Shown: one piece after another, positions 37,719 through 38,483 of the stretch | Layout of the letters: each line of letters starts with the position of its first letter | Numbering within the stretch: position 1 is the stretch's first letter | Source of the DNA: Shigella phage sb2 | Sequence record: PQ666540 | Reading direction: 5' to 3' (one strand) | Length of the DNA stretch: 64,000 nt | The notes under the pieces: generated by a model | Told to the model about the DNA's origin: nothing | Databases searched by the model: none | Seen by the model: the letters and a program-made list of their open reading frames with translations, nothing else | Made by a program: the position numbers and the translations under genes

Positions 37719-37722
37719 TTGA

Positions 37723-38376
37723 TTGTGGGGCTTCGGCCCCCTATTCTCGAGGAAACAAGTGATTATTTCTAAGTTTGTTAAAGTGAAAATTGTACCATCA
37801 AATTTTAAACATTATCAATCAAAGGGTTATAAATTAACACCTCTTGGAGCGGTTAAACATGGATTTAGGTATTATGAAATTGATGTTAAAGTTGAAGACA
37901 TTAAAGGTAATACCGCGTATGTAAAATGCCGTTGCGATAAATGTGGAATTGAATATAACCAACGCATTGGAAGAAACACTGATATTTGTCGTGATTGCCG
38001 TCATAAAGATAAAATGCGCAATAATTCATATGGTTCCGCGAATAAAGGAAAAACAGTAGAATGTATGCATGGCGTAAATCATCCAAGATGGAACCCAAAT
38101 AAATCTGAAATGCGTGAATATATTTCATTGGTATATAAAGAAACTCGTAAGCATAAGAAAATCTGGTCAAAATGGCCAAATGCTGATAAAATAGGAGTGT
38201 GTGGTGTAGAAGGTGCTTACCAACTCGATCATAAAGTATCTATCAAATATGGATTTGATAATTTAATTCCGCTGGAAATTATAGGCGGTATAAAAAATTT
38301 AGAAATAATCACTTGGGAATCTAACCGAGAAAAATCAAAAAGAAATAGCGTAGATCTTTGGGATTTACTAGAATGA
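37723..38376 (+). CDS. HNH-family homing endonuclease-like protein (non-ATG start: TTG 37723 or GTG 37759)
   Basis: CxxC...CxxC zinc finger (CRCDKCGIEYNQRIGRNTDICRDCRH) plus HNH core (YQLDHKVSIKYGFDN...GGIKNLEIITWESNREK). Confidence 0.75.
   Translation: MWGFGPLFSRKQVIISKFVKVKIVPSNFKHYQSKGYKLTPLGAVKHGFRYYEIDVKVEDIKGNTAYVKCRCDKCGIEYNQRIGRNTDICRDCRHKDKMRNNSYGSANKGKTVECMHGVNHPRWNPNKSEMREYISLVYKETRKHKKIWSKWPNADKIGVCGVEGAYQLDHKVSIKYGFDNLIPLEIIGGIKNLEIITWESNREKSKRNSVDLWDLLE
37727..37740 (+). terminator. stem-loop GGGGC-UUCG-GCCCC after gene 18
   Basis: 5-bp GC stem with UUCG tetraloop; same element recurs at 6239 and 47335. Confidence 0.45.
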
Positions 38377-38402
38377 TTCTAAAGGCCTGTTTCGGCAGGC
38401 CA

Positions 38403-38410
38403 TATAAATA
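38403..38410 (+). promoter_or_regulatory. late promoter box TATAAATA (distal, gene 19)
   Basis: Exact TATAAATA. Confidence 0.6.
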
Positions 38411-38461
38411 CACTATATCCTTAATTCTTTAATTCTATATGCCCTAGGTTAAACATAGGGA

Positions 38462-38469
38462 TATAAATA
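38462..38469 (+). promoter_or_regulatory. late promoter box TATAAATA (proximal, gene 19)
   Basis: Exact TATAAATA 15 nt upstream of the gene 19 ATG. Confidence 0.65.
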
Positions 38470-38483
38470 CTACAGAGGCTAAT

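Follow-up and report, generated by a model that had tools for sequence, protein, structure and literature searches.

Gene order and the inserted DNA

The window analysed here is a stretch of 64,000 nucleotides (nt) from Shigella phage sb2 (sequence record PQ666540), and the subject of this study is an open reading frame (ORF) that lies in it between gene 18 (tail sheath) and gene 19 (tail tube). A first-pass annotation, made from the letters alone, had described this ORF as an HNH endonuclease gene inserted between two genes that are neighbours in T4, and had proposed that it spreads as a free-standing homing endonuclease gene. Over 20 kb, the window DNA shares 96–97.5% identity with tequatroviruses such as ECp13 and pSs-1 without fully matching any of them. 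Alignment with T4 confirmed that genes 18 and 19 are separated by an insert and that T4 lacks the ORF. Gene 18 ends identically in both phages; after 'TAAT', the 'ACGGTGC' of T4 gives way to 656 nt in the window (alignment with T4 and RB3), and identity to T4 picks up again at ATTCTAAAGGCC, a stretch that includes the final base of the TGA of the ORF. The spacer between the two genes measures 765 nt in the window and 116 nt in T4, and in a comparison of 21 tequatroviruses it was exactly 116 nt in all 11 insert-free phages and 751–765 nt in the insert carriers.

The insertion itself was thus borne out, but its length had been put at 0.77 kb and is 0.66 kb. The 108 nt on the 3′ side of the insert, comprising a native hairpin, both late-promoter boxes TATAAATA and the Shine-Dalgarno sequence of gene 19, match T4 base for base and belong to gene 19; the two boxes had been assigned to gene 19 correctly (they are annotated as promoters in phage Lutter), but had been counted within the insert. 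At the other end, the insert begins with 'TGAT..' and a GGGGCTTCGG(C)CCC hairpin in all nine other carriers with an extractable junction, and the left-end UUCG hairpin was found in every insert-carrying phage of the junction comparison. It has no T-run and is hence not a canonical intrinsic terminator. Transposon-like ends were considered and rejected, as no target-site duplication was found at the insert ends in the spacers of the 21 tequatroviruses and no second copy of the ORF, which is single-copy, in the window. Coordinates of all features are collected in Table 1.

Table 1 Features of the gene 17–19 region in the window
Feature	Position	Strand	Remarks
Gene 17	33875–35707		upstream neighbour; gene order 17, 18, ORF, 19, 20
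Gene 18 (tail sheath)	35739–37718	+	left flank; stop TAA 37716–37718
Hypervariable patch	37631–37670	+	gene 18 codons for PARSINYITLNFVA; 48–87 nt upstream of the insertion point
Insert	37720–38375	+	656 nt, missing from T4 and insert-free tequatroviruses; alignment with T4 and RB3
Left-end hairpin GGGGC-UUCG-GCCCC	37727–37740	+	9 nt past the gene 18 stop; RNA fold
Shine-Dalgarno sequence GAGGA	37749–37753	+	5 nt before GTG; read from sequence
ORF, putative endonuclease	37759–38376	+	GTG start, TGA stop, 205 amino acids; counterpart of RB3_165; PHROG 5104
N-terminal allele-specific module	37786–38156	+	amino acids ~10–133; presumed DNA recognition
Zinc ribbon C59-x2-C62...C77-x2-C80	37933–37998	+	weak treble-clef DUF4379 matches
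HNH-like (H-N-N) core D157 H158...N180 L181...W186..N189 R190.K192	38227–38334	+	predicted strand-strand-helix unit
Native hairpin GGCCUG-UUUCGG-CAGGCC	38384–38401	+	identical in T4, RB3 and window; outside the insert
Two T4 late-promoter boxes TATAAATA	38403–38410, 38462–38469	+	native, for gene 19
Gene 19 (tail tube)	38484–38975	+	right flank; ATG at 38484

Start codon, integrity and expression of the ORF

The ORF is genuine: all nine copies that were translated are intact, its dN/dS ratio is 0.15–0.18 against relatives that are 41–97% identical, and it has homologues in other phages. Its GC content is 32%, compared to 40% in genes 18 and 19. Of the two start codons originally offered, the GTG at 37759 was retained and the TTG at 37723 rejected, since the ORF is annotated from the equivalent GTG in RB3, T6 and pSs-1, the N-terminus M-I-I-x-K ('MIISK') that is conserved throughout the family begins at this GTG (I2 is invariant in an alignment of 37 homologues), and the frame from TTG is broken by indels of 1–2 bases between phages within 37720–37745, upstream of GTG. 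The resulting protein of 205 amino acids (aa) agrees with the predicted length of about 205–217 aa, and the Shine-Dalgarno sequence, earlier judged weak, is adequate at this distance.

On the + strand, the ORF is preceded by a single TATAAATA, the late promoter of gene 18 at 35703, and no late promoter was found on this strand between 35710 and 38403. A terminator scan gave no intrinsic terminator, and there was no structure sequestering the ribosome-binding site as in mobE or I-TevI, the local fold being no better than that of shuffled sequences (z 0.5); only the UUCG hairpin was robust in the local RNA fold. As the ORF has neither a promoter nor a terminator of its own, it would be expressed late, by read-through past the UUCG hairpin.

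Protein domains and probable assignment to the HNH superfamily

The N-terminal CxxC...CxxC zinc finger noticed in the first reading was recovered as C59/C62 together with C77/C80: C59, C62 and C77 are invariant and C80 is mostly kept among the 37 aligned homologues, and DUF4379 was matched by 25 of 148 relatives (best E-value 7e−6). In the C-terminal domain, D157, H158, N180, L181, W186, N189 and K192 are invariant in the same alignment, and in a larger set of 219 aligned sequences D157 and H158 are conserved in 216/217 each, N180 and N189 in 215/215 each, and K192 in 211/215. The core pattern, D-H-x21-N-L-x7-N-R-x-K, is that of HNH domains of the H-N-N type, and the domain possesses what is expected of the HNH superfamily, i.e., a His as general base with a preceding Asp, a structural Asn, and an Asn as metal ligand. 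The same pattern is present in the HNH domain of SpCas9 (D839 H840...N854...N863 R864 x K866). The proposed core DH...GG..N..N could therefore be kept for D157, H158, N180 and N189, but not for the GG, which is unconserved. In the AlphaFold model (pLDDT 87.6), DH ends a strand (154–158), NL opens a second one (181–185), and N189 and K192 are located on a helix (186–192), an arrangement that, as modelled, corresponds to the beta-beta-alpha-metal fold of the superfamily.

Matches to known HNH models were found below threshold among the 148 relatives (HNH_4 in 17, HNH in 7; best E-value 3.5e−4), and in one relative a match with an E-value of 0.0018 lies exactly over the DH strand. The only PHROGs match of the window protein was 5104 ('unknown function'), and a profile search of the PDB reached the Cas9 HNH domain at an E-value of 0.3 only. 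Foldseek against BFVD retrieved members of the family together with proteins named HNH, homing or intron-encoded endonuclease. A profile search in 1.84 billion representative proteins gave 6,745 relatives at E ≤ 1e−3, 1,440 of them at E ≤ 1e−10, and this C-terminal domain also occurs on IMG/VR contigs in fusion with multiple helix-turn-helix motifs, DUF7487 repeats, NUMOD3 or other zinc ribbons. Such varied N-terminal fusions represent the build typical of homing endonucleases, described as 'beads on a string' for those of phages (PMC2988022). Taken together, the C-terminal domain is very probably a His-Me finger nuclease that is too divergent for current models.

One profile result was set aside: a C-terminal profile (window 38170–38370) pulled leucine-rich-repeat (LRR) proteins of Leptospira from the PDB with an E-value of 3e−12. 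An LRR identity was rejected as a chance match, because 'P.EIG.I.NLQ.L.W..N' mimics one LRR unit and the score is summed over repeats; this stretch of the C-terminal domain is a trap for automated annotation.

Distribution and fidelity to the gene 18–19 site

The insert occurs in two alleles, A and B, and the comparison of the 18–19 junction that had been recommended at the outset showed T4 to be without the ORF, T6 to carry allele B, and RB3, as well as pSs-1, to carry allele A. Out of approximately 500 tequatrovirus records, i.e., those sharing the junction at ≥ 90% identity, 117 have the insert (47 with the allele A module and 70 with that of allele B); it is missing from T4 and about 77% of the records. 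Outside the genus, tblastn found homologues in 243 phage records. The genomic context was examined in 13 GenBank genomes (RB3, ADUt, ECML-134, T6, pSs-1, and phages of Klebsiella, Acinetobacter (Twarogvirinae), Serratia (Winklervirus) and Aeromonas (Emmerichvirinae) as well as two Dhakavirus phages), and the gene was located directly between tail sheath and tail tube, the exception being Sinorhizobium phiM12, where it follows the sheath gene with no gp19 match downstream. Around 30 IMG/VR loci with a full-length match also have it between gp18 and gp19, and the site is kept even in phages whose gp19 is only 31–38% identical to that of the window. Among IMG/VR relatives identified through gp19, 14 of 15 lack the gene, including two of three closely related genomes. 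We thus find a standalone ORF between conserved genes that is missing in close relatives.

Some copies at this site deviate in length. Longer versions of 200–248 aa, whose N-terminal region is extended or of another kind, were seen in distant phages at loci L029, L031, L036 and L105 (Aeromonas phage AS-zj), and one of them holds a DUF7487-like 'KLERYGNANYNN' unit, which shows further module exchange at the locus. A protein of 106 aa in Salmonella phage S16 (M1HDJ8, found in BFVD) matches roughly half of the window protein at 71% identity. Possibly it is a copy that has been truncated or has decayed, and such a remnant would be consistent with the life cycle of homing endonuclease genes.

Alleles, recombination and discordance with the flanks

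The divergence of the ORF is only loosely coupled to that of its neighbours (Spearman 0.25–0.29 between ORF and flank identity, compared to 0.69 between gp18 and gp19). In ECML-134 the ORF is 59% identical to that of the window between flanks of 99–100%, and values of 39% with flanks of 76–81% and 45% with flanks of 38–48% were found at loci L035 and L012, respectively. Two very different alleles exist within Dhakavirus (59% identity in PSD9 and 38% in IME540).

Within the tequatroviruses, the protein of allele A phages RB3 and pSs-1 is 96–97.6% identical to that of the window, and the allele B protein of T6 about 51% overall. Both alleles share the leader and first nine codons (37719–37785) and the last 220 nt (38157–38376, approximately 96%); the 370 nt in between, compared by 30-nt window identities, are unrelated DNA in allele A (window, RB3) and allele B (T6, ECML-134). 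The window copy is itself an A/B chimera with a breakpoint near 38157–38205: its N-terminal module is 99–99.5% identical to that of allele A phages, its C-terminal module is 96% identical to allele B phages and 92% to other allele A phages, and the adjacent gene 19 is 99.2% identical to that of ECML-134.

Between carriers, the allele A module is 98.8–99.5% identical, the adjacent 800 nt of gene 18 95.2–96.3%, and the gene 18 and 19 flanks 95–97%. A module less diverged than its flank is the pattern that a recently spreading element would give. Discordance with the flanks, different alleles within identical flanks, and linked haplotypes in gene 18 (based on a small sample of 21 genomes, see below) all point to horizontal spread into a fixed site.

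A hypervariable patch in gene 18

The coding sequence for PARSINYITLNFVA, which precedes the insertion point by 48–87 nt, is unusually variable, with a nucleotide diversity of 0.14–0.17 in 37620–37679 and of 0–0.02 in neighbouring 30-nt windows (21 tequatrovirus junctions, drawing on 12 GenBank regions fetched one by one; IMG/VR gave 15 loci). The 40 nt of the patch encode P-A-R-S-I-N-Y-I-T-L-N-F-V-A, and the variation is almost purely synonymous, with the exception of T/Q at one codon and an R to S change in the window. Four patch haplotypes were distinguished: a private one is shared by all four allele B phages, and another by four of the five allele A phages and also by 2 of the 12 insert-free phages. 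The window has a patch of T4 type with three private changes, two inside and one 9 nt downstream; these three belong to a total of five private substitutions that the window shows in the final 459 nt of the gene. The same recoding was encountered independently in a trio of closely related genomes from another lineage (gp19 about 72% from T4). In the carrier, L098, a 37-nt stretch encoding this peptide has 16 changes relative to both non-carriers, and codons 1–12 of gene 19 contain 10 synonymous ones.

We hypothesize from these sequence comparisons that the patch could be a co-conversion tract that arrived with the gene, or that, as a candidate recognition or cleavage site, it could reflect selection on a target within conserved coding sequence. 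Both co-conversion and target-site selection are known around the T-even homing endonuclease genes for SegG, SegF and MobE (PMC2988022, PMC2993671).

Interpretation and alternative explanations

Motif, predicted fold and population patterns together make it probable that the insert is a free-standing homing endonuclease gene encoding a divergent HNH nuclease. What the first-pass annotation had deduced on this point holds with regard to the absence of the ORF from T4, the insertion and the matching distribution. The ORF belongs to neither the mob nor the seg family, with which a comparison had been proposed, and no Pfam, NCBIfam or PDB sequence model identifies it as HNH at threshold. According to the mechanism we propose, the gene would be transcribed late, by read-through from the late promoter of gene 18 past the UUCG hairpin, and translation from a GTG codon would yield little protein. 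Sequence-specific DNA recognition would be the task of the N-terminal zinc-ribbon module, and the C-terminal divergent HNH domain (His-Me finger, H-N-N) would act as the nuclease, with D157 and N189 holding the metal ion and H158 serving as the general base. In a co-infection, the enzyme would nick or cut an insert-free genome near the 18/19 junction, for which the conserved coding stretch of gp18 'PARSINYITLNFVA' is a candidate site, and recombination-dependent repair of the T4 type would copy the gene and some of its flank from the carrier genome. Metal-dependent cleavage, the target site, the choice between a nick and a double-strand break, and biased inheritance are all inferred here.

Several observations weigh against this explanation. 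Neither Pfam nor NCBIfam places the window protein in a named family, no curated HNH model scores above threshold for it or for the 148 relatives, Foldseek of the model against the PDB gave no match, and sequence searches of the PDB (single sequence, full-length profile and C-terminal profile) returned only zinc-finger or spurious LRR matches. Linkage between patch and allele could result from physical proximity alone, as they are 50–90 nt apart, the patch is polymorphic among insert-free phages too, and the window combines allele A with a mostly T4-type patch, so that there is no simple split into resistant and sensitive genomes. Every examined copy of the gene is intact (dN/dS ~0.16) with no decayed copy confirmed, which would equally fit a gene that is useful to the phage, and no experiment or functional study on the ORF protein was found in the searchable literature.

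The strongest competitor is a resident accessory gene of the tail module of the T4 superfamily that would be ancient, vertically inherited, often lost and moved only by homologous recombination within conserved flanks. Instead of copying itself, its nuclease would serve the phage, e.g., in the exclusion of competing genomes, the breakdown of host DNA or DNA processing. We regard this as unlikely. It would account for the constant position across the superfamily, for the integrity of all examined copies at a dN/dS of 0.15–0.18, and for a gene that is promoterless and embedded in the late tail operon, and recombination in T4 is frequent enough to produce mosaics. It does not sit well with the decoupling of ORF divergence from the flanks, with alleles of about 51–59% identity inside flanks of 99–100%, with two very different alleles within Dhakavirus, with the absence of the gene from roughly three quarters of close relatives, or with an allele A module less diverged than its surroundings, and unless a sequence-specific agent is assumed, it is difficult to account for the clustered synonymous recoding of adjacent, conserved codons in two lineages.

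Less probable still is a protein that is not a nuclease at all, namely a small zinc-ribbon protein binding nucleic acids (a regulator of tail genes or an assembly factor) with a superficial likeness to HNH. The lack of an HNH model at threshold, the negative Foldseek search against the PDB, the mimicry of an LRR unit by the C-terminal motif in the profile search, and the location between two tail genes all speak for it. Nevertheless, the near-invariant residues are exactly the catalytic and metal-binding set of H-N-N domains, correctly spaced and placed on the expected secondary-structure elements, HNH enzymes are its best neighbours in structure, and the domain recombines with varied DNA-binding modules in the manner of the nuclease domains of homing endonucleases; an essential role in the tail is excluded, since the gene is missing from T4 and most relatives. 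Finally, a packaging-associated HNH protein of the HK97 gp74 or GVE2 type that assists the terminase is highly improbable, given that T4-type phages are established to package by the headful mechanism with the gp17 nuclease alone, that T4 and most relatives lack the gene, that gene 18 separates the ORF from gene 17, and that a sequence-recognition module is swapped between alleles.

The homing endonuclease explanation can be extended to the whole family, for which we use the name ORF19.1 given to allele B in phage T6. As a tentative proposal that is somewhat more doubtful than not, the family may form a large unrecognised branch of HNH proteins (~6,700 clusters at 50% identity, no Pfam model), the full-length members of which would be locked to the sheath/tube junction throughout the superfamily, from phages of coliforms to remote T4-like phages known from metagenomes (gp19 31–38% identical), would follow the drift of their target by swapping zinc-ribbon modules on a constant nuclease, and would drive the synonymous hypervariability of the gp18 'PARSINYITLNFVA' codons, which would amount to an arms race within an essential structural gene.

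Comparison with known homing endonucleases

Allele B was deposited as ORF19.1 of phage T6, and allele A is unnamed. The elements of RB3, pSs-1 and T6 share with that of the window the site, the GTG start, the leader hairpin and the C-terminal domain; the N-terminal module of the T6 allele is unrelated to that of the window, whose copy is an A/B recombinant. Databases label the ORF as 'holin', 'putative head morphogenesis protein' or 'type II restriction endonuclease', automatic transfers that are probably wrong, and one record names it 'homing endonuclease'. A census of homing endonuclease genes from 2010 lists RB3 with seg-like, mob-like and intron-encoded genes only (PMC2993671), and at least allele A was thus not counted at that time.

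The T4 proteins MobA–E and enzymes of the I-TevIII and I-HmuI types are likewise encoded, by free-standing or intron-borne genes, between or inside conserved T-even genes, belong to the HNH superfamily and have modular DNA-binding parts. The nuclease of I-HmuI and of the Mob proteins is N-terminal, whereas that of the window protein is C-terminal, and its recognition module is a zinc ribbon instead of NUMOD or AP2. MobE is known to cut the neighbouring nrdB gene (review PMC2988022). Membership in the mob family, which the first-pass annotation had wanted examined along with seg, was judged by Pfam families: the window protein has no match to HNH_3, AP2 or NUMOD, and HNH_3 and AP2 are not among the 25 families most often matched by the 148 relatives, with NUMOD3 occurring in 3, all of which places the ORF outside mob. 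With respect to seg, neither a GIY-YIG match in Pfam nor a GIY...YIG motif in the sequence was found.

Other HNH proteins were also compared, i.e., HNH_4 types (Cas9 HNH, McrA-like) and the small phage nickases Gme HNH (4h9d), GVE2 HNH (5h0o) and T5 SciA (9qgx). In contrast to these, the window nuclease lacks flanking CxxC zinc ligands within its domain and has a loop from the His strand to the first Asn that is longer by approximately 8 residues; all sequence scores remain under curated thresholds. At the position of Trp186 of the window protein, the canonical HNH consensus expects a Cys.

Among the free-standing homing endonucleases of T4-related phages, Hef of phage U5 likewise lies outside the known families (PMC3322345). 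Hef-like proteins have a DUF7487 repeat module that is also present on some relatives of the window nuclease domain; the window protein has no DUF7487. An identity with Hef was rejected, as a protein of Campylobacter phage vB_CcoM-IBB_35 annotated as similar to U5 Hef scores < 1 bit against a hidden Markov model of the C-terminal domain, and the C-terminus of this Hef-like protein appears, by eye, to be of the Vsr/PD-(D/E)xK type. Its gene (HM246720, 1228–2952) adjoins the gp18 sheath gene. Hef-like endonucleases occur in Campylobacter, Acinetobacter and LIMEstone phages, and PMC3296691 lists that of LIMEstone1 beside the gene for the tail tube. The surroundings of sheath and tube thus appear to be preferred by nuclease families that are unrelated to each other.

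Significance

The ORF is best explained as an uncharacterised addition to the free-standing homing endonuclease genes of the HNH superfamily in T4-like phages. It is distinguished by a divergent nuclease without a Pfam model, by its fidelity to the gp18/gp19 site across the superfamily, by alleles with swapped modules, and by a prediction of its target. For intron-less homing, the model system is T4 with its relatives, but T4 itself does not have this element, which has remained a 'hypothetical protein' ever since ORF19.1 of T6 was deposited. If active, it would provide a name and a function for a family of thousands of unannotated viral proteins, and would account for the local concentration of silent variants in gene 18 and for the mosaic boundaries that phage comparisons show there. 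Alleles A and B would then constitute a natural pair with the same catalytic domain and different recognition modules at one locus, convenient for studying the evolution of specificity and perhaps for engineering.

Other interrupted genes in the window

Gene 18 of the window, although it encodes the essential tail sheath, contains two in-frame stops, TAA at 36120–36122 (GAA in RB3) and TGA at 37560–37562 (TGC in all 20 other tequatroviruses), and the remaining frame is 99% identical to gp18 of pSs-1. These stops could be due to an error in sequencing or assembly, to a stock of a conditional-lethal mutant, or to an altered sequence. Among 60 pSs-1 proteins mapped to positions 1–50 kb of the window, the only other interrupted gene was the homologue of denV (endonuclease V) on the minus strand (2960–3373), which has one in-frame stop at approximately 3055.

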